This document shows, in pieces, positions 19,856 through 62,578 of a stretch of 64,000 nucleotides of DNA; position 1 is the stretch's first letter, and each line of letters starts with the position of its first letter. The stretch is from an uncultured Gammaproteobacteria bacterium (lineage in GTDB: Bacteria; Patescibacteriota; Patescibacteriia; PEXW01). The stretch lies in NCBI GenBank assembly GCA_964486505.1, contig CAZAMC010000003.1, positions 19,505 through 83,504 on the forward strand. Direction: 5' to 3'. Position numbers and translations under genes: made by a program. The notes under the pieces were generated by a model. It did no database searches and had not been told where the DNA came from. It saw nothing but the letters and a program-made list of their open reading frames with translations.

Positions 19856-19864
19856 TGCTATACT
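19856..19864 (+). promoter_or_regulatory. Extended -10 TGCTATACT, 6 nt upstream of ATG 19871 (leaderless)
   Basis: Plus-strand instance of the recurring motif. Confidence 0.45.
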
Positions 19865-22302: not shown

Positions 22303-22311
22303 AGTATAGCA
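22303..22311 (-). promoter_or_regulatory. Extended -10 TGCTATACT, 6 nt upstream of ATG 22296 (leaderless)
   Basis: Minus-strand instance. Confidence 0.45.
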
Positions 22312-36186: not shown

Positions 36187-36993
36187 CTACCACCCAAGTG
36201 CGCGTTGGTACCAGGATACCACGCTGGGACCGAAAAGGAAGGTCAGCACACTCGCAAATGCTAGAAAACTTCCAAAAGGAATAGCCGTCTTGAAGGTCAC
36301 TCGCCCGCGCAGGAGGAGCACCACGGCCCACACACTGCCCACTACATAGGCAACAAAAAGTGCAGCGAGGGTGTAGGGCAAGCCCAAGAAGATGCCCATG
36401 AGCGCGCCCAGCCGGATGTCGCCCGATCCCACCCACCGGCCTTTCGACACGGCCCACTGTGCCGCAAACCAACCGGCGCCAGCGGCCGCGGCCAACACAA
36501 TAGTCCCCAGCTCTCTGAGCATACCGGACGCTACCGCTTCGCTGCCAAAGTGCGTCACCCGCAGAATTTGCACGATGCCAAGAACCACCATGCCCGATAC
36601 ACTGACGCGATCGGGGACAATGCCAAACTTTCCATCAATAACCCCCAAGACCACAAACCACGCTCCCCCAAGAATGCCCAGGAGCGCGAGCACACTCACC
36701 CCAAACTGCCATGCGGTGAGACCAAAAATCGCTGCCGTGAGAAGTTCTACCGCAAGGTATTGGGCGCTAATAGATTTGTGACAGTACCGGCACCGCCCGC
36801 GCAGGGCTAGATAACTAAAGACGGGTATGAGGTCGAGGACATGGAGTACATGCCGGCAGCGAGGACAGCGCGAACGATTCTTCACGCCAACCACCCGCCG
36901 GCCCTTGGGGATGCGGAGAATGAGGACGTTCAAAAAACTCCCAACGAGAGCGCCGAGGATTACTGCCACGGTTATGGTAAACCCGGCCGGCAT
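36187..36993 (-). CDS. pilD: Prepilin peptidase (A24 family)
   Basis: N-terminal CPRC...CRYC zinc motif; multi-TM; catalytic Asp regions VIDGKFGIVPD and GSGD. Confidence 0.85.
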   Translation of the reverse strand: MPAGFTITVAVILGALVGSFLNVLILRIPKGRRVVGVKNRSRCPRCRHVLHVLDLIPVFSYLALRGRCRYCHKSISAQYLAVELLTAAIFGLTAWQFGVSVLALLGILGGAWFVVLGVIDGKFGIVPDRVSVSGMVVLGIVQILRVTHFGSEAVASGMLRELGTIVLAAAAGAGWFAAQWAVSKGRWVGSGDIRLGALMGIFLGLPYTLAALFVAYVVGSVWAVVLLLRGRVTFKTAIPFGSFLAFASVLTFLFGPSVVSWYQRALGW

Positions 36994-36998
36994 GGCCG

Positions 36999-37415
36999 TT
37001 AGCGAATTCCCGCCGGAGTGAGCGTGTGGCGACCAGCCGCTAGGCCCGTGGCGCCCTTTTCCAACGTGAATGCCACTTCGTAGCTTGTCGCATCGGGCAC
37101 CTTGGTCACCAGGTAATCGCCGCCCCGCGGATCTCGCAGTGTACTAATGGTAGAAAAATCCTGCGCTAAGTTGCAGGTGCGAACGGGAACATTGGCTGTG
37201 CTACACCCATTCTGCGCCGCACCCGCGTAGCTGGCCGTGCGATTGTACAGCAGCAAAAACCCAACCTGGAGCCGAGCCATATCAGCTACGCGTTGGGCAT
37301 CGCGCGACTTAGCTCGCTCTGCACTAATGAGCCGAACGCCAATGAAGAGCACCACGAGCACGATGAGTGCCGCCACTACCATGCTGATCATGGAAACCCC
37401 CCGAGGCTGCTGCAT
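36999..37415 (-). CDS. Pilin-like protein lacking Glu+5 (MQQPRG|VSMISMVVAALIVLVV)
   Basis: Pilin-like hydrophobic N-helix and ...AERAKSRDAQRVADMARLQ...; TGCTATACT -10 lies 8 nt upstream of ATG. Confidence 0.5.
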   Translation of the reverse strand: MQQPRGVSMISMVVAALIVLVVLFIGVRLISAERAKSRDAQRVADMARLQVGFLLLYNRTASYAGAAQNGCSTANVPVRTCNLAQDFSTISTLRDPRGGDYLVTKVPDATSYEVAFTLEKGATGLAAGRHTLTPAGIR

Positions 37416-37423
37416 ATGGCCCT

Positions 37424-37432
37424 AGTATAGCA
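37424..37432 (-). promoter_or_regulatory. Extended -10 TGCTATACT, 8 nt upstream of ATG 37415 (leaderless)
   Basis: Motif recurs at six-plus gene starts in this window. Confidence 0.45.
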
Positions 37433-37435
37433 CGC

Positions 37436-39232
37436 CTACTGAGCCTGCAGTTGCTTCTGGATACCCGCTCGGAGCGTCTGCATATTCACGATATCTGTAG
37501 CGTAGGCAGGGTTGGCCGACCACGACCCTTCGGGATACGCCGCCAAAGCTTTGTCAACAACCGCTACGGCATCGGCCAGACGTTTCTGTGAAATGAGGAA
37601 GTTGGCGTACTCCCCAGCAATGTCTAAGTGGAAGGCATTGTCATACGTCACAGCCTTCTGAAAAGCGTGCTCTGCGTCCGCGTAGCGCCGGTCGGAATAC
37701 TCCACGCGGCCCAGTAGCCGGTACGTGAAGTAATTTGTGGGTGCCCATGCCAATGCTCGGTGCAGCTGCTCACGAGCCCGTTGGAGTGCGCCAGCATCGC
37801 CAGGAGCGCTCACCCACAGCGCTTCGGCAAGTTGGTTGCGACGCGTGGGGTCGGGGTCGTAGCGCAAGCCTTGCGCGTATGTTTGCACGGCGCTCTCGGC
37901 TTCCCCATGCGCTAACGCCCGGTCGGCCCGTTCAAAGTAGGTCCAGGCATACGCCACGCCCAAACCCCGAACGAAAACAATGAGGGCGATCACAACCATG
38001 ACGCTGGTCACGGCAAATCCTGCACGTCTGTTCGGCGCGGTGGTTGGGCCAGCCAGCAAGCCGGCCAGGATGAAAAATGCCACCCACACCGCGGGGAAAT
38101 GCCAACCAAAATCCACGGCGGCGGCAATAGCGCTCCCGCCAATAGCGACGCTCAACCAGGCAAGGTGCCTCTGGTCGGCATTCAAGTCTCGAAAGCGCTC
38201 CGCCACCCGCATCGCCAAAATTATGAACCCGCCCACGAACGCCAGCGCCACCAGCCCGCCGGCTTCTGCGGCAATCTCTAGGTACGCATTGTGGGTGTAC
38301 CGTGGTTGCTCAAAGAGCGTTCGCGCGTATCGCGGGTACGAAATTTGGTATGCCCCAAGCCCCACCCCGGTAAATGGACGGTCGATGAGCATGTCCACGG
38401 CGCTCTGCGCAAAATGCCACCGCTGGCTAAAGCTGGAACGGAAGTGCTCCCCTGAGATGACTTGATCAAGCCGAATTCCCGCTTGGAAGCTCTTCAGCTG
38501 CACCGATCGAAGCCCAACTACCCCTCCCAACAGCACCAACAGAATACCCAGGCTCCACACCACGCGGCGAACATTTACCACGCGCCGGCCAGCTATTACT
38601 ATGCCAATGATGGCGGCCAGGCCCAACCCAAACCATGCCGTGTAGGAATACGTCCGCAGGAGAGCAACGGCAATCACCCCCACGCCGAACCAAGACACAA
38701 TCCGCCAACGGCGCGAGCTACCCAGGGCAACGGCAACACCCACCGGCAGAACGAGCGCTAAGAATGCGCCGAGAGCATTCGCGTTGCCAAGCAGCCCCCC
38801 AGCCCGGTCTGCGCCTTCGGTGAACTGGCTTACCAACGCCCACGCGGCACTGCCCGCCCCGCCAACAAAAACCCAACGGAGTACGTTAGGAACATACGGC
38901 CCAGGGATTTCCCGAGCGGCAATGAACGTGGTGAAGCCGATGAACAGGTACGTGAGGTTCCGAACCGACGCGTAGTGCTGCTGTGACCACACTGCCGTAA
39001 GGGCTGCCAGTGCAAATGTGGCAAGGAACCACACCGTGGGTGAACGCCAGCCTCCCGCCAAAGGGTGCGCGTGGCGAGAAAAAATGACGAGGAGCAACGT
39101 GAGAATGCCAAGAACCGCATCCACCCAAGGTGACCAGTCACCCCCAATGACCGTGGCTACCAGGAAGGCAACCACGAGCGACACGGGCAATATGGATTCG
39201 CGGTGGAGGATCATGCCTAGGGTTGCGGGCAC
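37436..39232 (-). CDS. Wzy_C (O-antigen ligase/PglL-PilO-type oligosaccharyltransferase) family membrane protein with C-terminal TPR repeats
   Basis: 10+ TM; periplasmic-loop motif DRPFTGVGLGAYQISY...YTHNAYLEIAAEAGG; C-terminal ~170 aa TPR-like. The start overlaps the pilin stop by 16 nt. Confidence 0.7.
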   Translation of the reverse strand: MPATLGMILHRESILPVSLVVAFLVATVIGGDWSPWVDAVLGILTLLLVIFSRHAHPLAGGWRSPTVWFLATFALAALTAVWSQQHYASVRNLTYLFIGFTTFIAAREIPGPYVPNVLRWVFVGGAGSAAWALVSQFTEGADRAGGLLGNANALGAFLALVLPVGVAVALGSSRRWRIVSWFGVGVIAVALLRTYSYTAWFGLGLAAIIGIVIAGRRVVNVRRVVWSLGILLVLLGGVVGLRSVQLKSFQAGIRLDQVISGEHFRSSFSQRWHFAQSAVDMLIDRPFTGVGLGAYQISYPRYARTLFEQPRYTHNAYLEIAAEAGGLVALAFVGGFIILAMRVAERFRDLNADQRHLAWLSVAIGGSAIAAAVDFGWHFPAVWVAFFILAGLLAGPTTAPNRRAGFAVTSVMVVIALIVFVRGLGVAYAWTYFERADRALAHGEAESAVQTYAQGLRYDPDPTRRNQLAEALWVSAPGDAGALQRAREQLHRALAWAPTNYFTYRLLGRVEYSDRRYADAEHAFQKAVTYDNAFHLDIAGEYANFLISQKRLADAVAVVDKALAAYPEGSWSANPAYATDIVNMQTLRAGIQKQLQAQ

Positions 39233-39696
39233 GCAGTCACGGCTGCTTCGTCGGCTGTGCTTTTGCTATAGCTCAGCACCCACCATGACCCCGGATTCAC
39301 CGGGCGCTCAAGGAAAGCGTACAAGGTGTAGTTCCCGTTTGGTCGCCCCTCGCTATCGTCACATGCCAAATAGTAGTACCACTCATTTGCACTCGGCGCG
39401 TCTGGCAACTGACCCATGAACTTGGGTTCACCAATGAGCGCGTCGTAGAGCACGTTGCCTGTCGTGCTCGTGTTGTTAAACGGCAACGCCGATGCCTGCG
39501 GCGGGAAGTTCCCAAAGGCATCGTAGTAGAGGGCCAGGGCAGTTCGGACTGAACCCAGGTCGGTCTTACGCTTTGAGTCTCGGGCTCGTTCCCGAGCGCC
39601 CTGCATGGCAATGAGGCCGATAGCGGAAAGGATGCCGATGACCGCAATGACAACTAGCAACTCGATGAGGGTAAAGCCCGATCTGCGTTTCTCCAT
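39217..39696 (-). CDS. Type IV pilin (major-pilin candidate A2), MEKRRSG|[16 protein letters not shown]
   Basis: Canonical prepilin signal with E+5; 160 aa. TGCTATACT -10 lies 6 nt upstream of ATG 39696. Confidence 0.8.
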   Translation of the reverse strand: MEKRRSGFTLIELLVVIAVIGILSAIGLIAMQGARERARDSKRKTDLGSVRTALALYYDAFGNFPPQASALPFNNTSTTGNVLYDALIGEPKFMGQLPDAPSANEWYYYLACDDSEGRPNGNYTLYAFLERPVNPGSWWVLSYSKSTADEAAVTACPQP

Positions 39697-39702
39697 GGCC
39701 AC

Positions 39703-39711
39703 AGTATAGCA
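39703..39711 (-). promoter_or_regulatory. Extended -10 TGCTATACT, 6 nt upstream of the pilin A2 ATG (leaderless)
   Basis: Immediately follows the pilin A1 terminator hairpin. Confidence 0.45.
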
Positions 39712-39736
39712 AAAGAGCGCCTCGTGAGCGCTCTTT
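39712..39736 (-). terminator. Hairpin AAAGAGCGC-N7-GCGCTCTTT after pilin A1
   Basis: Perfect 9-bp stem followed by a T-rich run on the minus strand. Confidence 0.5.
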
Positions 39737-39750
39737 GTGCTTTCAGTAGA

Positions 39751-40257
39751 TTACAAGTAGGTTACGGCGCACGTGCTGGTGTTCAACGTTGCATCACTGT
39801 TTAGTGCTTCTCCTGCTGTACCTTGCGTGTAACTCACAACCCACCATGCATTTTGATTCGCTGGTCGCTCCAGGTTGGTGTACAAAATGTAGGTGTCGTG
39901 ATCCGCTGCTGCAGTAACGTCGCACGTCTTGTAGTAGTACGTGTCCGATGTCTGCGCCATCTTCGGCAGCTTGGAGATGAACTTCTGGGATGAGCCCACA
40001 AGGCCCATGCCAATGGAGTTCACTGTTTGGAATCGGTCATCAAACTCAATGCGCACGAAGGCGGGCGGGAAGTTCTGATACGTATCGTAATACAGCGCCA
40101 AACCCGTCCGGACCTGGCCGGCGTCGCTCTTGCGCTGGCTGTCGCGGGCCTTTTCACGTGCCCCGTTGAGGGCGATGAGGCCGACGGCAGACAGGATACC
40201 GATGATGGCAATAACCACCAAGAGTTCGATGAGGGTAAAACCTTTTCGGTTCGTCAT
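39751..40257 (-). CDS. Type IV pilin (major-pilin candidate A1), MTNRKG|[16 protein letters not shown]
   Basis: Start reset to ATG 40257, preceded by AAGGGAGGTGA SD. Promoter TGCTATACT at 40415-40423 gives a ~150-nt leader. Confidence 0.8.
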
Positions 40258-40414: not shown

Positions 40415-40423
40415 AGTATAGCA
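40415..40423 (-). promoter_or_regulatory. Extended -10 TGCTATACT upstream of pilin A1 (long leader)
   Basis: Same 9-mer as the leaderless promoters. Confidence 0.4.
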
Positions 40424-40452: not shown

Positions 40453-41661
40453 CTACGTAATGGCGTTGCTCACGTTGTAGATTGGCAGCAAAATTGAAGA
40501 AACCATGAAGCCCACACCCACGCCCATGAGGAGCAAAATCACCGGCTCAATGAGCGCAACCAGGTTCCGGACGAGGGCGTCTAGCTCGTTCTCGTAGAAC
40601 TGCGCCACTTTGAGCAACACCTGATCCAACCGACCCGACTGTTCACCCACGCTCATCATCTGGGAAAGCATGAGCGGCACTTGCTTGCTGCGGACGAATA
40701 CGGTGGTAATGGAATTGCCGTCTTCAACCTCCCGAATGGTCTTGTCGAGGATGCCCGAGTACACGTGGTTGCCTACCACTTCCGAGGTAATGCCCAGGGC
40801 CTGGGAAATCGGCACACCGGAGGCCAAGAGTGTGGACAGCGACCGGGCCAGGCGGGTGAGGTAAATCATGGTAAAAATCTTGCCACCAATGGGCATCCGG
40901 AGCTTCACAATGTCCAAAATCCGTCGGCCATTCGCGGTCTTCCGCCAGTAGTAGAAGCCCACAACCACGCCGACGAAGAGCGCAATGACAATGTACCACT
41001 GGTTGCGCATGAAGTTGCTCGTCCAGATCAGGAGCTTGGTTGTAAGCGGGAGCTCCACGCCACCCTGGGTGAAAATTTCAAGAAGTTTTGGCAGGACAAA
41101 AACAACCATCACAATTGCTACCACGACCACCGCGAAGAGCACGACCGCCGGGTAAATGAAGGCCCCCCGGACACGGCTCATGATGCCGTAATCTTTCTCG
41201 CGCTGGTCGGCAAGGTAGATGAGGACTTCGTCCAGCTTGCCGGTGGTTTCACCAGATCGGATCATGGACACGAAGAAGGTGTTGAACACGTTCGGGTAAC
41301 GCGCCATTGCTGCCGAAAGCTTGGCGCCGCCATCGACTTCATCCAGGATGTCCGACAAAATCATCTTGAAGTGCACGTTCTTGGTTTGGCGCACCAGAAT
41401 GCGCAGGGCGCGGACGATTGGCACGTTAGCCGAAATCATCACGGAAAGCTGCCGAGCAAAAATGACTTGCTCCTTAACGGTTACCCGACGGAACAAATCC
41501 GCACTGAAGAACTTCGCGCTCTTCGCCCGCTCTTTCAGGCTCACAATGGTCAGCTGCTTCTCCCGTAGGGTGTCGTACGCAACGGACTCCGATGGCGCGA
41601 CAACGGCACCTTCAACAGTCTGGCCTCCTAAATTTTTGGCGCGGTAATCGTAGATCGCCAT
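40453..41661 (-). CDS. pilC: Type IV pilus platform protein PilC (GspF family)
   Basis: 402 aa; two GspF repeats; 3 TM. Confidence 0.9.
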   Translation of the reverse strand: MAIYDYRAKNLGGQTVEGAVVAPSESVAYDTLREKQLTIVSLKERAKSAKFFSADLFRRVTVKEQVIFARQLSVMISANVPIVRALRILVRQTKNVHFKMILSDILDEVDGGAKLSAAMARYPNVFNTFFVSMIRSGETTGKLDEVLIYLADQREKDYGIMSRVRGAFIYPAVVLFAVVVVAIVMVVFVLPKLLEIFTQGGVELPLTTKLLIWTSNFMRNQWYIVIALFVGVVVGFYYWRKTANGRRILDIVKLRMPIGGKIFTMIYLTRLARSLSTLLASGVPISQALGITSEVVGNHVYSGILDKTIREVEDGNSITTVFVRSKQVPLMLSQMMSVGEQSGRLDQVLLKVAQFYENELDALVRNLVALIEPVILLLMGVGVGFMVSSILLPIYNVSNAIT

Positions 41662-41664
41662 ACG

Positions 41665-42741
41665 CTAGCTCCGGTTCGCAATCGAACGAATGTTGGCCGG
41701 GTCCACGGCCATCGCCTCGGCATCGGCGAGCTGAATGTCGCCCGTGCGCACGTACTCCGCGAGCGAGCGATCCAAGGAAATTGCTCCCTCTTCACGTGCC
41801 GTTTGCACGGCGTTGGCGAGCTGGAGGAACTGGCCATCCCGCACGAGTGCCCGCAGGCCGGTGGTGGGAGTGAGGACCCCACAGACGAGAATGCGCCCCC
41901 CACCCATGCGCGGCACCAGCCGCTGGTTGAGGATGCCAATGAGGGATTCGGCCAGGTGTTTGCGCGCCCACGCCTGCTCATCACTGGGGAAGGCGGCGGT
42001 GAGGAGTTCCAGGGCCTGCACAGAGGAGTCGGTGGTCATGGAGGCAATGACGAGCCGGCCGCTGTGTACCGCCCGCACGCACGCCTGCATGCTCGCCGCA
42101 TCCTCAAGCTCGCTCACCACGAGCACGTCCACATCTTCGCGGTCAGCCCCCGCAATGCCCGCGGCGGTCGTGGGGACGTCCGACCCAACTTCCCGCTGCT
42201 CAATGATGCTCTTCTCACTAGAAAACAAAAACTCAATCGGCCGTTCAATGGTCACCAGGTGTGCCGCCCGCTTGTGGTTAATGCTATTCACCATGGCGGC
42301 CATGGTCGTGGTGCGACCAGAACCGTAAGGGCCCACCAAGAGCACGAGGCCGTGTGTACTCTGGGCATACTGCTCGACAACCGCGGGCAATCCCAGGTCT
42401 TGAATTGTTGGAATTGCATCCGGGATGTACCGCAGGTCGAGGGAGAGATTCCCCTTCTGGTACTTGGCCACCAGCCGGAAACGGAGCTTCCCTTCCAGCG
42501 TCAAGGTGGTACGCAAGTCCCGTTCCCGCTCCAACGCCTCCCGCTGAGCCGGGCTGAGGATTGCTTCAACGTAGGCACGGAGCAGGTCCACGCTCAACGG
42601 CGCTTCTTGTTCCAACGTTAAAAGTTTGCCGTCGACGCGAAAGACGGGCGGGCTGCCCGCAAGCAAATGCACATCCGACGCCCGATACTGGGTGGCTTGA
42701 ATGAGGATGCGCGAGATTGCTTGTTGCTCAGAGGTAAGCAT
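41665..42741 (-). CDS. pilT: PilT-like retraction ATPase homolog with degenerate Walker A (GPYGSGRTTT) and His-box
   Basis: PilT fold and size (358 aa). The P-loop Lys is replaced by Arg. The canonical His-box (…TGHLVF.TLHT…) reads SGRLVIASMTT. Confidence 0.75.
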   Translation of the reverse strand: MLTSEQQAISRILIQATQYRASDVHLLAGSPPVFRVDGKLLTLEQEAPLSVDLLRAYVEAILSPAQREALERERDLRTTLTLEGKLRFRLVAKYQKGNLSLDLRYIPDAIPTIQDLGLPAVVEQYAQSTHGLVLLVGPYGSGRTTTMAAMVNSINHKRAAHLVTIERPIEFLFSSEKSIIEQREVGSDVPTTAAGIAGADREDVDVLVVSELEDAASMQACVRAVHSGRLVIASMTTDSSVQALELLTAAFPSDEQAWARKHLAESLIGILNQRLVPRMGGGRILVCGVLTPTTGLRALVRDGQFLQLANAVQTAREEGAISLDRSLAEYVRTGDIQLADAEAMAVDPANIRSIANRS

Positions 42742-42775
42742 GGTCGAGGGGTAGGCGGGCGACGAGGTTCCAGCG

Positions 42776-43195
42776 TTACTTCACCAGACGCTTTACTTTT
42801 GCCACAACTTCCGAGGGCATGAAGTGGGCTTTAATAAGGTAGTCGGTAGCGCCTAGTGCAAAACCCTTCTGCACGTCTTCCTTCTGGCCCAGGTTAGTGA
42901 GGAGTACCACTGTGGTGGCCTTTGTCTGAGGGTCTGCCTTTACTTCTTTCAAAACATCGAAGCCACTCTTCTTGGGTAAGACGACGTCCAGTAGCATGAG
43001 CTGGGGCTGCTCCCGTTTGGCAAGAACCAGCGCTTGTTCGCCGTCACTCGCGAGCACAACACGAAAGCCCTCGAGCTCGAGCTTTGTTACGTACATACCG
43101 GCCAAAAAGGTATCATCCTCAACGAGGAGAATTGTGCGCTTGCGGCTCTTTTCGGCCGGGCGCGAGGCGCCATTCTTCTTCAGTGCTTGGGGCAT
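42776..43195 (-). CDS. Single-domain response regulator (REC only; PilH/PilG-like position)
   Basis: LLVEDD, LMLLDVVLP, TNLGQKEDVQKG..ATDYLIK. Sits between pilT and pilB. Confidence 0.8.
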   Translation of the reverse strand: MPQALKKNGASRPAEKSRKRTILLVEDDTFLAGMYVTKLELEGFRVVLASDGEQALVLAKREQPQLMLLDVVLPKKSGFDVLKEVKADPQTKATTVVLLTNLGQKEDVQKGFALGATDYLIKAHFMPSEVVAKVKRLVK

Positions 43196-43207
43196 AAGGT
43201 GGGATTA

Positions 43208-44971
43208 TTACTCTTGCGTAGCGCGCAAAACTTCTTCAACGGTGGTCATCCCCAACGTGGCCTTCACAAAACCATCTTGCTGCATGGTGATGACGCCCTG
43301 CCGCTTCGCTTCGGCTTTAATGTCGGCGAGCTTCGAACCGCTGGTGATGATTTGCTGGAGCTGATCGGTAACCTCAATGACCTCGGCCACGACCAAGCGG
43401 CCTTTGTACCCGCTGTTCCCGCAGCGCGTGCAGCCTTTCCCGTGCATGAACTGCATCTTATTTTCTAGAGAGAAGTCCTTCGGGAGCGCTTGAACTGGGG
43501 CGGTGCGGAGCGAATCTATAACTTCTTGCTGTGTGGATTTCGGAATCTCCTGTGGTTCTTTGCAGTACTCACAAATGCGGCGCACCAGACGTTGGGCAAT
43601 AATTGTAGAAAGTGAGGAGGCAATGAGGAACGGTTCCACTTTCATATCTATGAGGCGCGGAATGGCCCCAAAGGCATCGTTGGTGTGGAGGGTGGAGAAC
43701 ACCAAGTGACCAGTGAGGGCGGCGTTGACGGCGAGCTCCGCCGTCTCGGTATCGCGAATTTCACCAACCATGACCACGTCGGGGTCTTGGCGCAGGATAG
43801 AACGCAGGCCGTTGGCAAAGGTGAGCCCGACTTCCGGGTTAATCTGGCTCTGGTTCACGCCTTCCATGTGGTACTCCACCGGATCTTCCAGGGTGACGAT
43901 GTTAATGTCTTCCGTGTTAATCATGCCCAGCAGCGTGTACAGCGTGGTCGACTTACCCGAGCCAGTGGGGCCCGTGCTGAGCACCATGCCCTGGGTGGAA
44001 TCGAGCGACTTCACCAGAACCTCTTTTTCGCGGGCAATGAAGCCCAGGTCGTCCAGATTCAGCTTCTTGGCCGATGAGTCAAGAATACGCATGACGACCT
44101 TCTCATTGTTCATGAGCGGCAAGGTGGAAACGCGTAGGTCAATGGACTTGCCGTCAACTTCGGTGTGGAAGCGTCCGTCTTGCGGCAGACGAGTTTCATC
44201 CAGCTTGAGGTTAGAGATGACCTTAATGCGCGCTACGATAGCGGCGTGCACGTACGGCGGAAGCTTAATGGAAGTATGAAGGATGCCATCAACACGGTAG
44301 CGGACGCGCGAGCCTTCGGCCGTTGGCTCAACGTGGATATCGGAGGCGCTGCCTTCAATGGCGTGGCGCAGAATAACCGCCACCATTTTCGAGACCGGCG
44401 CCGTCTTAATGACTTCCTCAATGCCCTTATCGGCTAAGCTAATCTCATCAAGGGGGCTCGTGGTTGGCTTCTCCGTGGGGGTGGCGGCTTCCAGCGCTTC
44501 CTGCACTTCAGCGGTGAGACTGGCGTACTGTTTGAGTATGCTGGTGATGGCCGAGGCAGACGCAATGTGGTACTTGAGCACAAAGTTCCGGTTCCGAGCC
44601 AGGAACTCCACCGCTTCCAACGCCCGGAAGTTGGTCGGGTCAACCAGAGCTATGCTCAACTCGTGCCCATCCTTAGCAAAAGCGACGAGCTGGTAGTTCT
44701 TCGCGAGGTCCCGCGGAATAATGTTCAGGAGGTCGGGCGAAATGACGCGGCCTTGGAGATCGATGTACGGGATTTGAAATACCTCGGCGCGGGCTTGGGC
44801 GATACTGTCGTCACGGACATAGCCTTGTTTTTCAAGTATCTCAAGAACCGAGACATGCTTCGCCCGTGCTTCCCGCTGGGCAATATCCAACTGCTCACGC
44901 GAAATGGCTTTCTGTTCTAGCAGAACAGCCGCGATGTCGCGCAGGGGTGTTTGTTGCACAGCAGTGGTCAT
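43208..44971 (-). CDS. pilB: Type IV pilus assembly ATPase PilB (GspE family)
   Basis: N-terminal GSPII_E_N domain; Walker A GPTGSGKSTT; tetra-Cys CEYC...CTRC. Confidence 0.9.
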   Translation of the reverse strand: MTTAVQQTPLRDIAAVLLEQKAISREQLDIAQREARAKHVSVLEILEKQGYVRDDSIAQARAEVFQIPYIDLQGRVISPDLLNIIPRDLAKNYQLVAFAKDGHELSIALVDPTNFRALEAVEFLARNRNFVLKYHIASASAITSILKQYASLTAEVQEALEAATPTEKPTTSPLDEISLADKGIEEVIKTAPVSKMVAVILRHAIEGSASDIHVEPTAEGSRVRYRVDGILHTSIKLPPYVHAAIVARIKVISNLKLDETRLPQDGRFHTEVDGKSIDLRVSTLPLMNNEKVVMRILDSSAKKLNLDDLGFIAREKEVLVKSLDSTQGMVLSTGPTGSGKSTTLYTLLGMINTEDINIVTLEDPVEYHMEGVNQSQINPEVGLTFANGLRSILRQDPDVVMVGEIRDTETAELAVNAALTGHLVFSTLHTNDAFGAIPRLIDMKVEPFLIASSLSTIIAQRLVRRICEYCKEPQEIPKSTQQEVIDSLRTAPVQALPKDFSLENKMQFMHGKGCTRCGNSGYKGRLVVAEVIEVTDQLQQIITSGSKLADIKAEAKRQGVITMQQDGFVKATLGMTTVEEVLRATQE

Positions 44972-48043: not shown

Positions 48044-49156
48044 CTACGCACTAAGTTGACGGAGACCAAGACCAACGGCCACGGCGAAACGCGGGCCAAT
48101 TTCATTCCATACCGGCTTCAGTTCCACGGGGTACGAAATACGGGCCCAGGGATCACCAATGTAGGTCCGGATGTTGAGGAGTTTTGTGAAGTACTCTGGC
48201 AAATTTGTGAGGAACGCCGACCCACCCGCGAGAATAATTTTATCAATGCTCCGGCCTGTGCCTTGGTTTTGGAACAGGTTCAGCACGTACCGAATTTCGT
48301 TGGTTATTGAATTCACCACGAATTCGATGGCTTTGGGGATGTTGCTATCTGCAGCACCCTGGGTGGAAATGAAGAAGTCCCGCTTGAATTGCTCGGCGCG
48401 ATCATTGCTCACGCGCAACGTACTGGCAATGGTCTTGGTAATTGTGTCGCCCCCAACATCAATAGAGCGCGTAAGCATGGGGATGCCCTCGCTGAACACC
48501 ACAATGTCAGTGGCCACCGCCCCAATGTCCACAATCATGATCGGTGCCCGATCGTGGCCAATGAGTGAACGCTCCAGGGCAAATGCTTCGGTTTCCAGGG
48601 CCACCAGCTGCAAATCAGCGGCTTTGAATATCTCCATGTACCGCTGGACTAGGTTCTTCGGCGCCGCGGTCAGCAACACTTTCATGTCCTTTGTAGCCGC
48701 CTTACTCTCATCCGCTTTCGGCTCGGGTGGCCGAGCAACGTTGGCACCGGCAACTTTTGCGGCCAGCGTGTCGTCCTTCAGCACCTCCCAGTCCAGAATC
48801 ATTTCATCCACAGGCATGGGGACGAACTTCTTCGCCTCCCACTTCACGGCGGACATCAGCTCCTTCTTGGACATCTGCGGCAGCGAGATGATTGAACTGA
48901 ATACCGTAAAGCTCGGCAGCGAGGTTACCGCTAGACGGGAAGTTGTCCGTGACGCTTTCACAACTTGCTTCAGCGCATCTACAATGGCTCGCATTTCGTC
49001 GGCCACGCTGTTCTTCAAGAGGTCGCTGCGCTTCTCGGCAAAACCATAGGTCACCAACGTTGGCCGCCCATTATCTGACCGTAATTCGACAGCCTTAATT
49101 GAAGAGCCGCCAATATCGACGCCGAGGAAACTTTGCTTTGAAGAAAAGAGGGGCAT
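48044..49156 (-). CDS. pilM: PilM (actin-like ATPase)
   Basis: FLGVDIGGSSIKAVEL N-terminal motif; 370 aa. Confidence 0.8.
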   Translation of the reverse strand: MPLFSSKQSFLGVDIGGSSIKAVELRSDNGRPTLVTYGFAEKRSDLLKNSVADEMRAIVDALKQVVKASRTTSRLAVTSLPSFTVFSSIISLPQMSKKELMSAVKWEAKKFVPMPVDEMILDWEVLKDDTLAAKVAGANVARPPEPKADESKAATKDMKVLLTAAPKNLVQRYMEIFKAADLQLVALETEAFALERSLIGHDRAPIMIVDIGAVATDIVVFSEGIPMLTRSIDVGGDTITKTIASTLRVSNDRAEQFKRDFFISTQGAADSNIPKAIEFVVNSITNEIRYVLNLFQNQGTGRSIDKIILAGGSAFLTNLPEYFTKLLNIRTYIGDPWARISYPVELKPVWNEIGPRFAVAVGLGLRQLSA

Positions 49157-49163
49157 GGGGAAT

Positions 49164-52100
49164 TTATGGCAATTCTCGGGTAGGATTGGGCAGCGCTTTC
49201 GTTACATCCTCTAGGCCGGGGGGCGGATTCAGGAAGAGCCGCTGGTCAAACGTTACCTGCTCCGCCGGCTCGTCAATCGTGTCGAGTGCGCCCGTGCGGG
49301 TAAAGTTGAACTTCCGGGCAAAGAGGAGGCCTTCAATGGTAAGTGGATTGCACTTCTTATCGGTGCCCCCGCAGAAAGCGGCATCAGCATCGTTCCCAGT
49401 ATCAAAGGCGCCACCACACCCATCGAAGCCGTACTCAGAAGCGGTGCACGCTGCCGATGGAGTATCGGCATTGAGGTCAGGATCTTTTGACGAGTCCCGG
49501 CCGATAACAATGAAGGCGCCGGTAATGCGATTGACCTCTTTCGCAATGCTCACGTTCCCCCGCACTATGAATGCCGCCGCCATAGAATCCCGTATGGAAG
49601 CGGGGGTAACCGCTGCAAGGTCAAGGTCTTTGGTAGGATCTGAGGCAATGATATTATAATGAATTTTTAGATCACCGTCCACTACGAACGTGATGTTCCG
49701 CGGCAAGGTTTGGCCAACTGTATAGGGCATGCGCCACACCCAACGGATAGTAGTGCCTAAGGGGTGATCACTCGCGGTATAGGGGTTCCCGCTTATGGTT
49801 CGTACACCGGTTAACTGATTCCCACTCTTACCGGTGTAGCTCAAGTACTCTTCTTTCCCGCTGCCCGTGCCAAGAATTACGGTGCCAGACAAGGGGTACG
49901 TGGCACTTGGGGTTGGGAAATTGGCTGCTGAGGCCAGCGTGAGCGTGCCCCCAGCGCCATTAATCGCTGCCCGCTGCCCACTGACCGCCACCGTGAGCGT
50001 TGAGGCCGCAATATTGGCCTCATTCGGGTCGTGCCCAATGGTCAAGTCGCCTTGGATGTGCACAACTTGGTTCTCAATAGCATCCAACGGGATGTCCGGA
50101 GGCGAACCACCACCCCCTGGCGGGGTATACGCAAACTGACCCGCCAGCTCATTCACGGTCCAGTCCACGGGCGTTGTGCCATTCTTGGTGGTCACGAAGA
50201 TTTTTTGGCCAAAACGGTTTGTAGAACGTTGGTAATCTTTTGTACCCAGAATGTCATTGTATGGGGCGAGCCCCGTCACATCTTTCGTTAGACCACCAAC
50301 GTCAAGTTTGCCAAGAGCATTGCGGTAGGTGGCGGTTGAGGTCTGTACGGACGGGAAACCAAACGTGTTCGGCGCCGAAGCACTATCACGGCCAAAGAGC
50401 TCGGGCGCAGTAGTGCCCAGCGACCGCGAGCAATCGGTATAATTCCCGTCAAACCCACACGCGCTATCCCCGGCAAGCAAATTCTGGAGGAAATCTATGG
50501 AAGCCGAAGAACCTGGTGATACAGACTGGCCCGACGGGTGCGCCAGTGGTTGCAACGTGCCGTTGGTTTCAATGCGATAGGTACTCACGTAACACGCTTC
50601 ATCCCCGTCGCCGTCACCATCCAAGTCGCGGCCGCAGGACGTTAACCGTTCTCCGGTTAAGCGTTGGGCATCGGGCAATTGGAAATTCCCCGCATCGGCG
50701 CCGCCACCGTTGACGTAAATATTCCCGAAGAGCGTTTCTAACCAGGCATACCCCAAGAAGATGAGCGGGTTGAAACGAATCCACCCGTACTCCCCGCTCC
50801 ACGCCCAACCAGAAAGAAGGTAACCATTCCCCGAATAGTACGCATTCACGCCGTAGTCACCGCCTGCTGCGTATACAGGCGTTCCAATAGAGTAATTCCG
50901 AAGAATGTCATTCGTCACCAAATTCAGTACAGGTTCACCAAAAATATCGGTGCCGATGCTTGAGTAGTAGAAGTACTCTTCGCCGATAATGCCAATTTCA
51001 TTCTTCCCGGTAACGACTGGGTCGGGGAAGGTGCTTGCATCAACAACAGGGAGCTGCGAATTCCCTGAAGCATACGCTCGTCGCAGGGTTGAGGTCTTTG
51101 TGGAATCCCGCCAGTAGCCTTGGAAACGCACCCACCCGCCTTCGGCGTCTCGGCACCGGTACGTGCCGCCCCCAATGTCCTGGTAATTGCAGAGATTCAA
51201 GAAACGCCCCCAACCATTGAGCCGTTGGGACGTCTTGTCGTACTTTAACGTAGGGTCACTCGTCAACACGCTGTTGCGATATGCCTGTCCGGGTGGGTTG
51301 CCGTAGTTGTTGTCATCGGTCAGCGGATCGGCATCACCACAGTTGCCCACGGCCCCGCAGTCGTAGGCGCTATGCAGACGGTTGAAGCTTAAAAAACCAG
51401 CATTACTGGACCAGCCAAATCCGCTCGCGGCGTACGTCATGTCTGTTGGCGTGGGGGAAAAGTTAACAGTGGGCGGAGAATTAACCGGCGCCACCGCAAG
51501 ACTAGTGCCGTACGGTGAGCTCCCCGGTGGCGCGCACGCATCCGTGGACTTTGCATTCGCACAGTTCATTGAGAGCCAACCAAAGTTCGATGACCAGCCG
51601 TAGCCATACACGTTACCCCCCGAATTCGCAGTGAAGGCCAACGCTTGCGCACCCACCCGTTCCCACGCCACAGGTGGTAACCCGCTATTCAAGGTCACGG
51701 CTCCTGAAGTTACCGGTGGCATTATCGGCGAGTATGCCTGCCCCGTAACGCCAGTGCTATCATCAAAGACCGCAGTTGTAGACCAGGTATAGGATGCAGG
51801 GGGGACTTGGTCCTCTTTAAAAATTGCCAATCGGTTGGTGGATAAATCGCGCATGGCTAGGTATGCCGAGTTTCCATGGAAACCCACCACCGGTGCCGCG
51901 TACGTACTTGCCCCAATGTACGGAGAAGCGCCAAAGGTTGCGTGGGCTACGCTGTTTGCCTGCTGGCCAATGATAAGTGGAATAGACATCACGCGCACGT
52001 GGTTCTGGTGCGCTTGGTCCTGTGCGTACGTTGTGGATGTGTTGTCGTGCCCTCCTTCATACGCGATAACCAGCCGAGACGAATCGGTGCCGGTGGGCAG

Positions 52101-53345
52101 CGCTGCTGCGGAAAAGCTAAAAGATAGTGCCCCAATGTTCGGCGCGCCAGAAGTGGGAGAGCACGCGTCCAGCCAAATTGCCGGCTCAACGTTTTTTACC
52201 GTATAGGGAATCCAGGAATTCGCATTCGCTTTATCCGCCATCACCGAAACCTGCATACCCAGTATGTACGGCAAACTTTGATAACAATTAACTACGTCCA
52301 CCGAGAACTCGCGTCCAACAACACGGACGATTGCGGGGGAAGCATCGGTACCTGTGGGCACGAGAATCGTCTGCGCATCACCAGATAAAGGCCAATTGTA
52401 CCGCTTCCAGAACGCCCAGGGGTCATCACCGCTGACAAGTCCATAGTCGGGAACGCCATCAGAATTCGTATCGGTCAGGCTCTTGCCCATGTTGCTCAGC
52501 TGCCAGGTTGGATTCGCAGTGGTGAAGTTATCGGTATAGAAAAGGAAGGTGTAGCCATCGGCACAACTTGTGTGAAAATCCATCACCACCCACAGACGCT
52601 CACCCGCGCCGTACTTCTGGGCCAGCACCGAGGTTGTTGCCGCTCCTTCATACGTGCTGTTACCAGGGCAGTTCCCGAGCTGTGGCCAGGGTCGTACCGA
52701 CGCAGCATAGGGAACGTGGTTGTGCGTGGAAGCGGCGCCCATGACCCATTGCTTGGTGCTTGGATTCCAAGTGAGCTTCTGGACGTGAACACTACCATTG
52801 CCCGCAGTGTCGCCCGTGTACGCCACCCAAATACTGGAGCGATCCCAGCTTTGCGTAACCGTGTAGTCAAGGCGCAGCCGGCTGCCCGTGTTCACCAGAA
52901 GAACGGGGAGGTACTGGGTTGCGCTCTCAATAGCGCGTGACCAGGTGACGCCTTTGTCGCGACTCATTTTAAATTCAATCCGGCAGAGCTTATGGCTGGC
53001 GTCTATAACTGTGCACGCACTATCGTCGTCATTCACATAGGCCACAAAGAAAGCCTCTACCCCGGGCTCTGGCTCCATGTACAGCATCTTGGTTCGCTCC
53101 TGCCGCTCCGGCCGCCACGCGTATACGTTATCGGAAAAAGAAAAGGGGGCTATCTCCCTCTCCCACCCAAAATTTTCGTACGGGGTTGCCGCCTCCGCGT
53201 ATTGAGCTCCACTAACAATTGTCGTAGGGGTGGTAAGTGCCGCCTGCGCTACTCCTGACGTTACAAAAAACCCAATCAGCGAAAACGCCGCAGCCCAGAG
53301 TGAGCCGCGGAACCACTTTGCATTACGCCATGTGCTAACAAGCAT
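49164..53345 (-). CDS. Giant secreted surface protein (~1394 aa) with BNR/Asp-box, GW-aromatic repeats and DxDxDG Ca-binding run
   Basis: Start reset to MLVSTWRNAKWFRGSLWAAAFSLIGFFVTSGVAQA (signal peptide). SRDKGVTW Asp-box. Repeats GWSSNFGWLSMN, GFGWSSNAGFLSFN, NGWGRFLNL, GGWVRFQGYW, GWAWSGEYGWIRFN. DLDGDGDGDE. Confidence 0.6.
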   Translation of the reverse strand: MLVSTWRNAKWFRGSLWAAAFSLIGFFVTSGVAQAALTTPTTIVSGAQYAEAATPYENFGWEREIAPFSFSDNVYAWRPERQERTKMLYMEPEPGVEAFFVAYVNDDDSACTVIDASHKLCRIEFKMSRDKGVTWSRAIESATQYLPVLLVNTGSRLRLDYTVTQSWDRSSIWVAYTGDTAGNGSVHVQKLTWNPSTKQWVMGAASTHNHVPYAASVRPWPQLGNCPGNSTYEGAATTSVLAQKYGAGERLWVVMDFHTSCADGYTFLFYTDNFTTANPTWQLSNMGKSLTDTNSDGVPDYGLVSGDDPWAFWKRYNWPLSGDAQTILVPTGTDASPAIVRVVGREFSVDVVNCYQSLPYILGMQVSVMADKANANSWIPYTVKNVEPAIWLDACSPTSGAPNIGALSFSFSAAALPTGTDSSRLVIAYEGGHDNTSTTYAQDQAHQNHVRVMSIPLIIGQQANSVAHATFGASPYIGASTYAAPVVGFHGNSAYLAMRDLSTNRLAIFKEDQVPPASYTWSTTAVFDDSTGVTGQAYSPIMPPVTSGAVTLNSGLPPVAWERVGAQALAFTANSGGNVYGYGWSSNFGWLSMNCANAKSTDACAPPGSSPYGTSLAVAPVNSPPTVNFSPTPTDMTYAASGFGWSSNAGFLSFNRLHSAYDCGAVGNCGDADPLTDDNNYGNPPGQAYRNSVLTSDPTLKYDKTSQRLNGWGRFLNLCNYQDIGGGTYRCRDAEGGWVRFQGYWRDSTKTSTLRRAYASGNSQLPVVDASTFPDPVVTGKNEIGIIGEEYFYYSSIGTDIFGEPVLNLVTNDILRNYSIGTPVYAAGGDYGVNAYYSGNGYLLSGWAWSGEYGWIRFNPLIFLGYAWLETLFGNIYVNGGGADAGNFQLPDAQRLTGERLTSCGRDLDGDGDGDEACYVSTYRIETNGTLQPLAHPSGQSVSPGSSASIDFLQNLLAGDSACGFDGNYTDCSRSLGTTAPELFGRDSASAPNTFGFPSVQTSTATYRNALGKLDVGGLTKDVTGLAPYNDILGTKDYQRSTNRFGQKIFVTTKNGTTPVDWTVNELAGQFAYTPPGGGGSPPDIPLDAIENQVVHIQGDLTIGHDPNEANIAASTLTVAVSGQRAAINGAGGTLTLASAANFPTPSATYPLSGTVILGTGSGKEEYLSYTGKSGNQLTGVRTISGNPYTASDHPLGTTIRWVWRMPYTVGQTLPRNITFVVDGDLKIHYNIIASDPTKDLDLAAVTPASIRDSMAAAFIVRGNVSIAKEVNRITGAFIVIGRDSSKDPDLNADTPSAACTASEYGFDGCGGAFDTGNDADAAFCGGTDKKCNPLTIEGLLFARKFNFTRTGALDTIDEPAEQVTFDQRLFLNPPPGLEDVTKALPNPTRELP

Positions 53346-53367
53346 GGGAGTGTTGTTTTGTAAAAAT

Positions 53368-53376
53368 ATTGTACCA
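53368..53376 (-). promoter_or_regulatory. Extended -10 TGGTACAAT, 22 nt upstream of the giant-protein ATG
   Basis: Follows the terminator of the upstream adhesin-like gene. Confidence 0.4.
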
Positions 53377-53412
53377 TGAAAAACATAAAAAAGCAAGGGC
53401 TTCAGTTTCACT
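53376..53412 (-). terminator. Rho-independent terminator AAGGGCTTCAG-N5-CTGAAGCCCTT + T6
   Basis: 11-bp stem and T-run on the minus strand after the 602-aa gene. Confidence 0.55.
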
Positions 53413-55250: not shown

Positions 55251-55288
55251 GGCTTTTTTGGTTATCGTTGCGGGTAAACCCTGCGTAC

Positions 55289-55319
55289 GGTATACTCCAG
55301 GGGTTAGCGGCAGTATACC
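55289..55319. promoter_or_regulatory. Inverted repeat GGTATACT-N15-AGTATACC in a divergent promoter region
   Basis: Each arm contains TATACT/TATACC -10 hexamers on opposite strands. Same arms are found upstream of clpC. Confidence 0.45.
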
Positions 55320-55343
55320 ATTTTCCCCTAACCTTGTACACCT

Positions 55344-55823
55344 ATGAGCGAGCGCAAGCCAGTTGCCCAGCTCCCGGCCCAGCAAAAGGCCATTCTCGGC
55401 ACCGCTATTGTTGCTCTCCTCCTGGTTGCTGCCGCGGGAACCGCATTTTGGTACGGCCGGCAGAGTGCCAGCAATACCAACACCTCAGCAAACTCCACGA
55501 ACACCGATACCACCGCCACGCCGGGCACTGATGAGCCCAACACACCAGCAAAGATTGCGGGCAAGGTGGTGAAGGTGCTTGGGGATAGTATTGAAATCAA
55601 CACCGGCTCCGGAGAAACCACACGCACAGTAACCGCCGTCATCAGCAAAGCAACTGAGCTCCGAAAAATTGACTACCGCTCGATTCCAAAAAATGGCGTG
55701 GGTAATGGTGTGCCCCTAAAGAAAGATGAAATTACTACCGGCGCTTCGGTCGTTGTTGCGGCGGACGACGTTTCGAGTAATAAAATCGAAGCCAGTAAAG
55801 TGAGCCTCCTCATCTACCCCTAA
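55344..55823 (+). CDS. Hypothetical membrane-anchored small protein (159 aa) with S/T/N-rich linker and beta-rich domain
   Basis: N-terminal TM, low-complexity TNTSANSTNTDTTATPGTDEPNTP. Confidence 0.45.
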   Translation: MSERKPVAQLPAQQKAILGTAIVALLLVAAAGTAFWYGRQSASNTNTSANSTNTDTTATPGTDEPNTPAKIAGKVVKVLGDSIEINTGSGETTRTVTAVISKATELRKIDYRSIPKNGVGNGVPLKKDEITTGASVVVAADDVSSNKIEASKVSLLIYP

Positions 55824-62569: not shown

Positions 62570-62578
62570 AGTATAGCA
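62570..62578 (-). promoter_or_regulatory. Extended -10 TGCTATACT, 9 nt upstream of ATG 62560 (leaderless)
   Basis: Same motif family. Confidence 0.45.

Follow-up and report, generated by a model that had tools for sequence, protein, structure and literature searches.

Type IV pili are the best-documented host-binding tool of cultivated Patescibacteria, and the glycosylation of their pilins has been guessed with a site predictor only, with no enzyme named (PMC11623550). The window analysed here, a 64-kb stretch of patescibacterial DNA, carries, within a complete type IV pilus cluster, a gene for a Wzy_C membrane protein with a TPR domain (hereafter the enzyme); this gene directly follows that of a pilin (pilin A2). 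The first-pass annotation had proposed a pilin O-oligosaccharyltransferase (O-OTase), and we regard this as the best reading, with a probability of roughly 0.6. The proposal stands as regards family, the residues R271 and H314, and the linkage to the pilus, whereas the PglL/TfpO-specific motif and the C-terminal acceptor that went with it do not. Our literature search found no paper linking the pili of Patescibacteria with a Wzy_C/O-antigen-ligase gene.

The annotated open reading frame is real (Table 1), with a stop codon at 37436-37438 on the reverse strand, and encodes 598 aa if read from GTG 39232 or 592 aa if read from ATG 39214. As four of the five closest homologues begin at the residue matching M7 of the enzyme (alignment A1), ATG 39214 is the start supported by the homologues; the N-termini of the other three members of this alignment are longer and unrelated. 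This ATG sits 2 nt past the TAG stop of pilin A2 (39219-39217). The junction between the two genes is tight with either start and probably contains no overlap, the 16-nt overlap given earlier holding only with GTG 39232 as the start. Pilin A2 is a canonical prepilin, as annotated (N_methyl, E 6.4e-9; GFTLIE), that from its sequence has a probable start at ATG 39696 (MEKRRSG/FTLIE), and it is probably co-transcribed and translationally coupled with the enzyme. Upstream of it, pilin A1 starts at M27 of the listed reading frame with GGGAGGTG ahead of the start, and is probably the major pilin. The two pilin genes are parted by a terminator-like hairpin that is supported by RNA folding and was not called by a simple terminator scan; pilin A1 is thereby set apart from the pilin A2-enzyme unit. 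An extended -10 box, TGCTATACT, follows this hairpin as the putative promoter of a leaderless transcript of pilin A2 and the enzyme, and a further copy precedes the next gene as the putative promoter of the next unit; the window holds six copies of the box versus 0.09 expected. The pilus motor and platform genes (40453..44971) lie upstream of the enzyme in the same orientation. The enzyme gene had been described as lying between pilin genes, which is correct for its upstream side, whereas its downstream neighbour, a 138-aa protein (p138), is pilin-like only, with no Pfam match (N_methyl included), no Glu5 and no canonical prepilin motif. p138 is nonetheless conserved, and its N-terminal helix resembles that of pilins in the alignment.

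Table 1. Coordinates of the enzyme gene, its domains and the surrounding pilus features.
Feature	Position	Strand	Evidence and remarks
Prepilin peptidase PilD	36187..36993	(-)	A24_N_bact and Peptidase_A24
138-aa pilin-like protein (p138)	36999..37415	(-)	phmmer in all loci; alignment
TGCTATACT box	37424..37432	(-)	8 nt ahead of ATG of the 138-aa gene
Wzy_C + TPR membrane protein gene	37436..39232	(-)	ORF list, Pfam, homologue alignment, AF2
C-terminal TPR domain (predicted extracytoplasmic)	37439..37960	(-)	aa ~425-598
13th transmembrane helix (TM13)	37961..38029	(-)	aa ~402-424; DSSP of AF2 model, hydropathy
Wzy_C domain	38234..38683	(-)	Pfam; aa 184-333
Pilin A2 (prepilin)	39217..39702	(-)	N_methyl and GspG-like matches, sequence, pilin alignment
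TGCTATACT extended -10 box	39703..39711	(-)	6 nt ahead of pilin A2 ATG
Terminator-like hairpin then U-run, 3' of pilin A1	39712..39741	(-)	RNA fold -23.4 kcal/mol, z -3.2
Pilin A1	39751..40257	(-)	N_methyl; sequence with strong Shine-Dalgarno
PilC	40453-41661	(-)	ORF; Pfam of orthologues in loci L001 and L006; phmmer synteny
PilT	41665-42741	(-)	ORF; Pfam of orthologues in loci L001 and L006; phmmer synteny
Response regulator (RR)	42776-43195	(-)	ORF; Pfam of orthologues in loci L001 and L006; phmmer synteny
PilB	43208-44971	(-)	ORF; Pfam of orthologues in loci L001 and L006; phmmer synteny

The linkage of the enzyme to the pilus extends to 16 distinct related loci (27-83% identity) from Patescibacteria MAGs, a Kerfeldbacteria chromosome (CP181398.1) among them. 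In all 16 the enzyme gene lies beside a pilin gene, down to 27% identity, in the order PilB-RR-(PilT)-PilC-pilin-[GT2]-enzyme-(pilin)-p138-PilD-minor pilins, with p138 following either the enzyme or the enzyme and a pilin in every locus (phmmer). A GT2 glycosyltransferase gene occupies the same spot in nine of these loci; no specific sugar could be assigned to it, all of its NCBIfam matches being far below the cut-offs. Since the enzyme is present in every related pilus operon, it most likely puts sugars on pilus subunits. More distant Wzy_C-TPR proteins, for which one second-tier family was recovered and two second-tier contexts were examined, lie in polysaccharide or housekeeping loci with no pilus linkage, and the linkage thus belongs to the clade of the enzyme. 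The same comparison bears on a different reading, in which the enzyme would ligate or polymerise a non-protein glycopolymer of the cell surface (a repeat unit that is polymerised, or a glycan joined to a lipid anchor or to the wall) that the pilus needs or is merely co-regulated with, the TPR domain contacting pilus machinery or wall. The Wzy_C family takes in both ligases and polymerases, the only relative with a solved structure is a lipid-acceptor ligase, and the PglL-specific domains are absent from the enzyme; moreover, the nearest relatives outside the clade are found in polysaccharide loci with glycosyltransferases, Wzz, CpsB and further Wzy_C genes, and patescibacterial genomes contain several Wzy_C-TPR paralogues in non-pilus contexts. 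Against this, the placement among pilin genes is kept in 16/16 loci across deep divergence, the junction with the pilin gene is tight, the enzyme gene in sister loci heads a unit that runs on into a pilin gene, and no Wzz, Wzx, ABC exporter or other polysaccharide gene is found in the pilus loci except for the single GT2. We therefore consider a glycopolymer ligase or polymerase rather unlikely.

Assignment of the enzyme to the Wzy_C superfamily, as annotated, is firm: PF04932 matches with E 7.6e-20 and 71.7 bits versus a gathering score of 31.7, and also matches all eight clade members tested. Several Pfam TPR families match at aa ~439-570, in agreement with the annotated TPR array. An NCBIfam match to IctB (48.6 bits versus a cut-off of 366) reflects generic Wzy_C similarity and was rejected as an identity. 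The motif quoted by the first-pass annotation is present (R285-P-F-T-G-V-G-L-G-A-Y ... H314-N-A-Y-L-E-I-A-A-E-A-G-G); rather than a PglL/TfpO signature, it is a general Wzy_C motif that WaaL shares. The large extracytoplasmic loop (aa 242-325) holds the catalytic arginine and histidine expected of the superfamily, R271 (SFSQR) and H314 (EQPRYTHN), which align with R265/H313 of CmWaaL and R288/H338 of EcWaaL; the PglL counterparts of this pair are R298/H349 (PMC3643930). R271, G289, G291, H314 and G325 are invariant among 44 diverse Wzy_C proteins. A second essential arginine (EcWaaL R215/PglL R224) is replaced by Tyr197 in 'TYSYTAW', and by Tyr or Leu across the clade, such that, of the three Arg/His positions on which WaaL and PglL depend, two are kept and the third is substituted; the invariant R143 may compensate for the loss. 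Within the clade, R271, H314, G289/G291, the EQPxYxHN block, N150/N152, R143 and D374 stay unchanged between members with an overall identity of 27-30%, and all map to outer loops, which argues for a working active site. This invariance also weakens the view that the protein is a non-catalytic factor for pilus assembly or stability, a polytopic anchor displaying a PilF/PilW-like TPR scaffold, for which the loss of one essential arginine and an NCBIfam match to PilW (E 1.8e-7) could be taken to speak. PilF and PilW are outer-membrane lipoprotein pilotins for secretins, whereas the enzyme is a polytopic inner-membrane protein and no secretin gene is seen in the cluster; the match reaches only 31 bits versus the TIGR02521 cut-off of 154, and the structural likeness is generic to TPR domains. 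Such a purely structural role is very improbable.

The AF2 model of the enzyme (pLDDT 92.7, pTM 0.92) exhibits the WaaL-like polytopic fold of the Wzy_C superfamily, with the large extracytoplasmic loop linking TM9 to TM10, and comprises 13 transmembrane helices and an outer TPR domain of 174 aa. DSSP of the model shows TM13 running on as a single helix (402-441) into the TPR domain, and this helix is predicted to bring the C-terminus to the outer face. Positively charged inside loops (SSRRWR, GRRVVNVRR, ERFRDLNADQRH and NRRAG) put both the catalytic loop and the TPR domain on the outer side, where the model predicts that the two adjoin. A single-sequence search of the PDB with the whole enzyme returned TPR proteins only and with the membrane part no match, WaaL being reached with profile searches alone; the best structural match of the enzyme is WaaL, and the TPR part of the model matches the TPRs of OGT. 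As the PDB matches include no structure of PglL, PglS or TfpO, comparing folds does not tell ligases from protein O-OTases, and as WaaL is the only solved Wzy_C structure, its match does not discriminate. That the enzyme is a ligase of the WaaL type, coupling O-antigen to lipid A-core, as this match and the NCBI label of the homologues ('O-antigen ligase family protein') might suggest, is scarcely credible. WaaL (C. metallidurans, 7TPG/7TPJ; E. coli) is only ~16-18% identical to the enzyme and has neither its 13th transmembrane helix nor its TPR domain, and the arginine corresponding to EcWaaL R215 is gone from the enzyme. An LPS context, named at the outset as the finding that would speak for WaaL, is absent: the window and the 16 loci, all of them pilus operons, contain no LPS genes. 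To our knowledge, Patescibacteria lack LPS biosynthesis.

Ser/Thr-rich C-terminal pilin ends had been suggested as acceptor sites, and this was not borne out: the C-termini read ...ACPQP in pilin A2 and ...AVTYL in pilin A1, and a terminal Ser or Thr occurs in only 6 of 30 adjacent pilins of relatives. Across all adjacent pilins no internal S/T motif is universally conserved in the alignment. Pilin A2 carries a T-S-T-T cluster (39460-39471) at mature residues 69-72, in the alpha-beta loop position; its AF2 model, from a two-sequence alignment, is too poor (pLDDT 43) to place the cluster, and its exposure is therefore argued from sequence position only. On the donor side, genes for an initiating phosphoglycosyltransferase, a flippase, sugar-nucleotide enzymes or a GT are all absent from the 64 kb, which also contain no GT2 orthologue and no second Wzy_C gene. 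We infer donor, acceptor and site alike, the acceptor (a pilin) from gene context. A further reading is a general PglL-like O-OTase acting on many surface proteins (S-layer, minor pilins, adhesins), with pilins as one substrate and the operon position reflecting co-expression. Besides the missing fixed pilin sequon, the ability of TPR domains to bind diverse peptides favours such an enzyme, as does an architecture (592-598 aa, 13 TM and a C-terminal outer domain) closer to PglL/PglS than to TfpO/TfpM (PMC9829042, Table 2). General PglL enzymes are, however, typically unlinked to their substrates and substrate-specific ones linked (PMC12645811), the pilin linkage here is invariant, and the other Wzy_C-TPR paralogues of the phylum could fill general roles. 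A general O-OTase thus appears unlikely.

As a pilin O-OTase, the enzyme would be a pilus-dedicated polytopic glycosyltransferase with a core of the WaaL/PglL fold (Wzy_C), whose C-terminal TPR domain would be displayed by TM13 at the outer surface of the membrane. A glycan would be built on undecaprenyl-(pyro)phosphate, in sister genomes with the help of the operon-encoded GT2, and then flipped outward, and its phosphate(s) would dock in the pocket that R271 and H314 form in the large outer loop. With the membrane-anchored pilin held by the TPR domain ahead of its entry into the fibre, the glycan would be moved onto an internal Ser/Thr, for which the alpha-beta-loop S/T cluster of pilin A2 is the most plausible candidate. 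A bolder and, as a whole, unlikely proposal is that the clade constitutes a fifth class of enzymes for pilin O-glycosylation, specific to Patescibacteria, and that with the GT2 of sister genomes it makes up the first module for protein glycosylation to be defined in the Candidate Phyla Radiation. On this view the altered phosphate-binding site, where Tyr/Leu takes the place of the arginine of WaaL R215, could point to an atypical donor in these pathway-poor cells, for instance a polyprenyl-monophosphate sugar or a unit derived from lipid II, and pilin glycans would join in host recognition by the pili with which these episymbionts attach.

The operon offers for study a concrete gene for a candidate transferase, together with candidate acceptor sites. 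If the preferred reading is true, pilin-linked Wzy_C O-OTases would reach beyond the Proteobacteria, from which they are known so far, to an ultrasmall lineage that lacks an outer membrane. Glycoengineering could gain a different substrate range from an O-OTase that is guided by TPRs and has a divergent active site. Should the pilins prove unglycosylated, the gene would remain a conserved and so far uncharacterised part of the pilus operon in Patescibacteria.

Among known systems, the genes of pilin-specific O-OTases adjoin those of their pilins, and the large C-terminal periplasmic domain of PglL/PglS is thought to read internal sequons (PMC9829042, PMC12645811). PglS (Acinetobacter baylyi, ComP-specific) and PglL (Neisseria, general) share the Wzy_C core and catalytic Arg/His with the enzyme, and PglS is likewise encoded beside its pilin-like substrate. 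With ~13 TM helices, a large C-terminal periplasmic domain and 520-620 aa (PMC9829042, PMC12800693), they also agree with the enzyme in size and topology, and their internal Ser/Thr glycosylation is what would be expected of it. In contrast, PglL_A (PF15864) and Wzy_C_2 (PF11846), which mark PglL/PglS, gave no match at E<=10 in the eight clade members tested, membership in PglL/PglS/TfpO being judged here through Pfam models and not by direct alignment; the equivalent of PglL R224 is Tyr/Leu in the clade, and the host, a Patescibacterium, has no outer membrane, unlike those of PglL/PglS. TfpO/PilO (P. aeruginosa 1244, Acinetobacter) and TfpM (Moraxellaceae) resemble the enzyme in being encoded immediately downstream of their cognate pilin and in having neither PglL_A nor Wzy_C_2 (PMC12645811), and differ in their length of 420-470 aa with no C-terminal domain and in glycosylating the C-terminal Ser/Thr of a pilin, whereas the pilins here end in Pro or Leu. 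A C-terminal TPR motif is reported for PglL and for the S-layer O-OTase WsfB of Paenibacillus alvei (PMC2943079); from PglL/PglS the enzyme differs in that its C-terminal domain is a canonical multi-repeat TPR. WsfB, likened to the enzyme by description only, is likewise a Wzy_C protein and has a protein acceptor and a host without an outer membrane, but acts on an S-layer protein from an S-layer glycan locus. OGT and the TMTC O-mannosyltransferases, in which a TPR array fused to a glycosyltransferase chooses the protein substrate, offer an analogy only, as their catalytic domains and donors are unrelated to those of the enzyme. The enzyme thus fits no described class of O-OTase.

The target protein has a Pfam Wzy_C match of 71.7 bits (cut-off 31.7) over aa 184–333 and is matched by several TPR families over aa ~439–570; the first-pass annotation of a Wzy_C-TPR protein beside a pilin gene was therefore correct. 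The AlphaFold2 model, based on a 44-sequence alignment (pLDDT 92.7, pTM 0.92), has 13 transmembrane helices, the last of which (aa 402–441) runs unbroken into the C-terminal TPR domain. The cytoplasmic side is recognisable by short loops rich in Arg (SSRRWR, GRRVVNVRR, ERFRDLNADQRH and NRRAG), so that in this model the outer face would carry both the 84-residue TM9–TM10 loop and the TPR domain. For the transmembrane core, fold comparison (Foldseek E 3.9e-6) and a profile search (E 6e-28) both lead to the WaaL O-antigen ligase of Cupriavidus metallidurans (CmWaaL), which is also the sole PDB match of a transmembrane-only profile of the clade, i.e. the enzyme and its related proteins (E 1.9e-6); no other solved Wzy_C-type structure appears among the fold and profile matches to the core. 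By structure comparison, peptide-binding TPR domains and OGT are similar to the TPR part, as, in a generic way, are PilF/PilW. Only R271, G289, G291, H314 and G325 are invariant among 44 diverse Wzy_C proteins. R271 aligns with CmWaaL R265 and EcWaaL R288, and H314 with CmWaaL H313 and EcWaaL H338; the WaaL Arg and His are reported to be essential and are conserved in PglL as R298 and H349 (PMC3643930), and TfpM requires the equivalent His (PMC9829042). In the alignment, Tyr197 occupies the place of the third essential residue, EcWaaL R215 (PglL R224), and the position is held by Tyr or Leu throughout the clade. That the enzyme is a true WaaL, as the shared fold might imply, is scarcely credible. 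Further clade-invariant residues (R143, N150, N152, S196, T198, the EQPxYxHN block, E323 and D374) all lie on the outer face. From the pattern of invariant residues, the active site would seem to be functional if somewhat divergent, unlike that of a degenerate scaffold, and a non-catalytic scaffolding role, with which the missing Arg would agree, is very improbable.

The enzyme is encoded within a complete type IV pilus cluster on the minus strand (window 30.4–49.2 kb; ORF calls and domain matches), the features of which are collected in the table. Directly upstream of PilM lie two large ORFs, 49164–53411 (-; 1415 aa) and 53442–55385 (-; 647 aa), that have no Pfam match and may encode pilus-associated surface proteins. 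The 16-nt overlap proposed between the enzyme gene and pilin A2 holds only if GTG 39232 is the start, and is lost if translation begins at M7 (ATG 39214), with which the starts of four of the five closest homologues coincide in an alignment of clade members; the N-termini of more distant members are longer and unrelated. ATG 39214 is 2 nt past the TAG stop of pilin A2, and neither start leaves room for an independent ribosome-binding region. An extended -10-like box, TGCTATACT, occurs six times in the window (0.09 expected), with three copies in the pilin–enzyme region: ~150 nt upstream of pilin A1, which has a strong Shine–Dalgarno sequence (GGGAGGTG) and is followed by a stable hairpin and U-run; 6 nt upstream of the pilin A2 ATG; and 8 nt upstream of the ATG of p138, a conserved pilin-like protein. 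As read from these signals, pilin A1 alone, a leaderless pilin A2–enzyme transcript, and p138–PilD onward are the likely transcription units. In sister loci, a like box precedes the start of the enzyme itself by 6 nt, with a pilin gene next downstream, and we infer that the enzyme shares a transcription unit with a pilin in both arrangements. That several of the boxes end 6–8 nt before start codons (pilin A2, p138, sister-locus enzyme) suggests wide use of leaderless mRNAs by these Patescibacteria.

Features of the pilus cluster and of related loci (L, numbered homologue loci or contigs from other genomes; P, proteins from other genomes).
Feature	Location	Strand	Remark
PilM	48044-49156	-	first in cluster order
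Two membrane proteins, then 394-aa protein	between PilM and PilB	-	
PilB	43208-44971	-	then response regulator, PilT, PilC in order
PilT	41665-42741	-	
Pilin A1	39751-40257	-	
Pilin A2	39217-39696/39702	-	
Target ORF (Wzy_C-TPR)	37436-39232	-	
p138	36999-37415	-	138-aa pilin-like ORF
PilD	36187-36993	-	prepilin peptidase
Five large minor-pilin-like ORFs, then LigA	after PilD	-	last in cluster order
TGCTATACT boxes, window	19856-19864	+	
	22303-22311, 37424-37432, 39703-39711, 40415-40423, 62570-62578	-	
TGCTATACT boxes, relatives	L003 2639-2647; L011 5908-5916; L012 338-346; L014 5926-5934; L015 5947-5955		
GT2	L003 1595-2596; L011, L014-L019, L021 (e.g. L021 4995-5987)		nine loci
Wzy_C fusions	L024 19784-end; L025 12989-end; P0228, P0230, P0237, P0240		

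A word-indexed search returned only eight close homologues before scores fell from 730 to 110 bits; an exhaustive HMM search gave ~27 cluster representatives above 400 bits and, at 170–300 bits, full-length Wzy_C-TPR proteins that form a second tier. By a scan of species-representative genomes and contig look-ups, we gathered 16 distinct loci with a clade enzyme (27–83% identity), all from Patescibacteria MAGs and including a complete Candidatus Kerfeldbacteria chromosome, and searched the pilus proteins of the window against their ORFs. The order in every locus is PilB, response regulator, (PilT), PilC, pilin, [GT2], enzyme, (pilin), p138, PilD, minor pilins and, usually, LigA. Among the next-best relatives outside the clade, some occur in polysaccharide loci and one in an unrelated context, and the second-tier proteins sit amid housekeeping genes in genomes that have further Wzy_C-TPR paralogues. 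Given the same order in all 16 loci and the other contexts of the next-best relatives, pilus linkage is a specific, conserved property of the enzyme clade. The main rival reading, to which the relatives in polysaccharide loci might point, is that the enzyme ligates or polymerises a surface glycopolymer and is co-regulated with pili; it is considered unlikely. In nine sister loci, the first pilin and the enzyme are separated by 1.1 kb, in which lies a conserved GT2 glycosyltransferase (~325 aa, VNWNG...DNGS motif) that resembles, far below any specific cut-off, rhamnosyltransferase-type enzymes extending lipid-linked sugars; no orthologue of this GT2 occurs in the window or in its closest relatives, and a search of the 64 kb gave no initiating phosphoglycosyltransferase, flippase, sugar-nucleotide enzyme or any GT gene.

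Several further observations were made on these genomes. A PilT match is absent in the sister-subclade loci L011, L014–L018 and L021 (PilB, response regulator, PilC) and kept in the subclade of the window as well as in L006 and L010; all loci keep the response regulator that follows PilB and precedes PilT/PilC. Elsewhere, Wzy_C is fused as FolD (THF dehydrogenase/cyclohydrolase)-Wzy_C-TPR (~910 aa) or behind a MraY/WecA-type phosphoglycosyltransferase (PF00953) as Wzy_C(-TPR) (~1000 aa). L012 and L013 are the two ends of the 19.9-kb JBIOWE010000017.1 (1–8146; 11771–19916 reversed), inverted with identical ORF coordinates and scores, which is probably a palindromic assembly artefact. Four MAGs (L015, L016, L018 and L022) are titled 'uncultured Gammaproteobacteria bacterium' and carry the same-order Patescibacteria-type pilus cluster; these labels are probably wrong.

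The C-terminal Ser/Thr acceptor expected under the TfpO/TfpM rule was not borne out, as the last residues are ...ACPQP in pilin A2 and ...AVTYL in pilin A1; terminal Ser or Thr occurs in only 6 of 30 adjacent pilins of relatives. An S/T cluster, F-[ND]-[GN]-T-[ST]-T-[ST], is common to the A2-type pilins in the subclade of the window; in pilin A2 (mature residues 69–72, nt 39460–39471) it lies, judged by sequence position (the structure model, pLDDT 43, is unusable), just past the N-terminal helix, much as does Ser63 of Neisseria PilE, which PglL modifies. At the equivalent place, G-x-G-P-D-[TIL]-S is common to the downstream pilins in the sister subclade, and p138 has a conserved T-A-S-Y-x-x-A-A motif and two Cys; the three motifs are candidate acceptor sites only. 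Kept in every related locus, p138 is pilin-like in its N-terminal helix and ERAK-x-RDA-x-R motif, with Gly at the putative cleavage site, and has no Glu5 and no N_methyl match; it is possibly a minor pilin of non-canonical type or a further acceptor. We put the probability that pilins are the acceptor of the enzyme at about 0.6, the weak points being that the 64 kb show no genes of a donor pathway, that the acceptor is read from gene context, which cannot prove it, and that one essential Arg is missing. A general O-OTase, the acceptors of which would extend beyond the pilins to which the gene order points, is a decidedly doubtful alternative.

Within the literature library searched, we found no published link between Patescibacteria pili and a Wzy_C/O-antigen-ligase gene, and a detailed study of Saccharibacteria pili gives predicted glycosylation sites only and calls the process unexplored (PMC11623550). 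Reading a Wzy_C gene beside a pilin gene as that of a pilin O-OTase is already a published heuristic (PMC3643930), and the enzyme is therefore an addition to an already recognised kind. Four O-OTase classes are recognised: TfpO and TfpM (420–470 aa) are pilin-adjacent, use a C-terminal acceptor and are without PglL_A or Wzy_C_2, whereas PglS and PglL (520–620 aa) use an internal acceptor and have a large C-terminal periplasmic domain with PglL_A and Wzy_C_2 (PMC9829042, PMC12645811). The target protein is like TfpO/TfpM in its pilin adjacency and in giving no match to the Pfam models PglL_A and Wzy_C_2, and like PglL/PglS in length and 13-TM-plus-outer-domain architecture; the outer domain forms a canonical TPR array. 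According to an older review, PglL and the S-layer O-OTase WsfB both have a TPR motif at the C-terminus (PMC2943079), which gives the Wzy_C-TPR architecture a precedent among protein O-OTases. By their defining features the enzyme is outside all four classes, and by analogy it would work most like a PglS-type pilin-specific enzyme.
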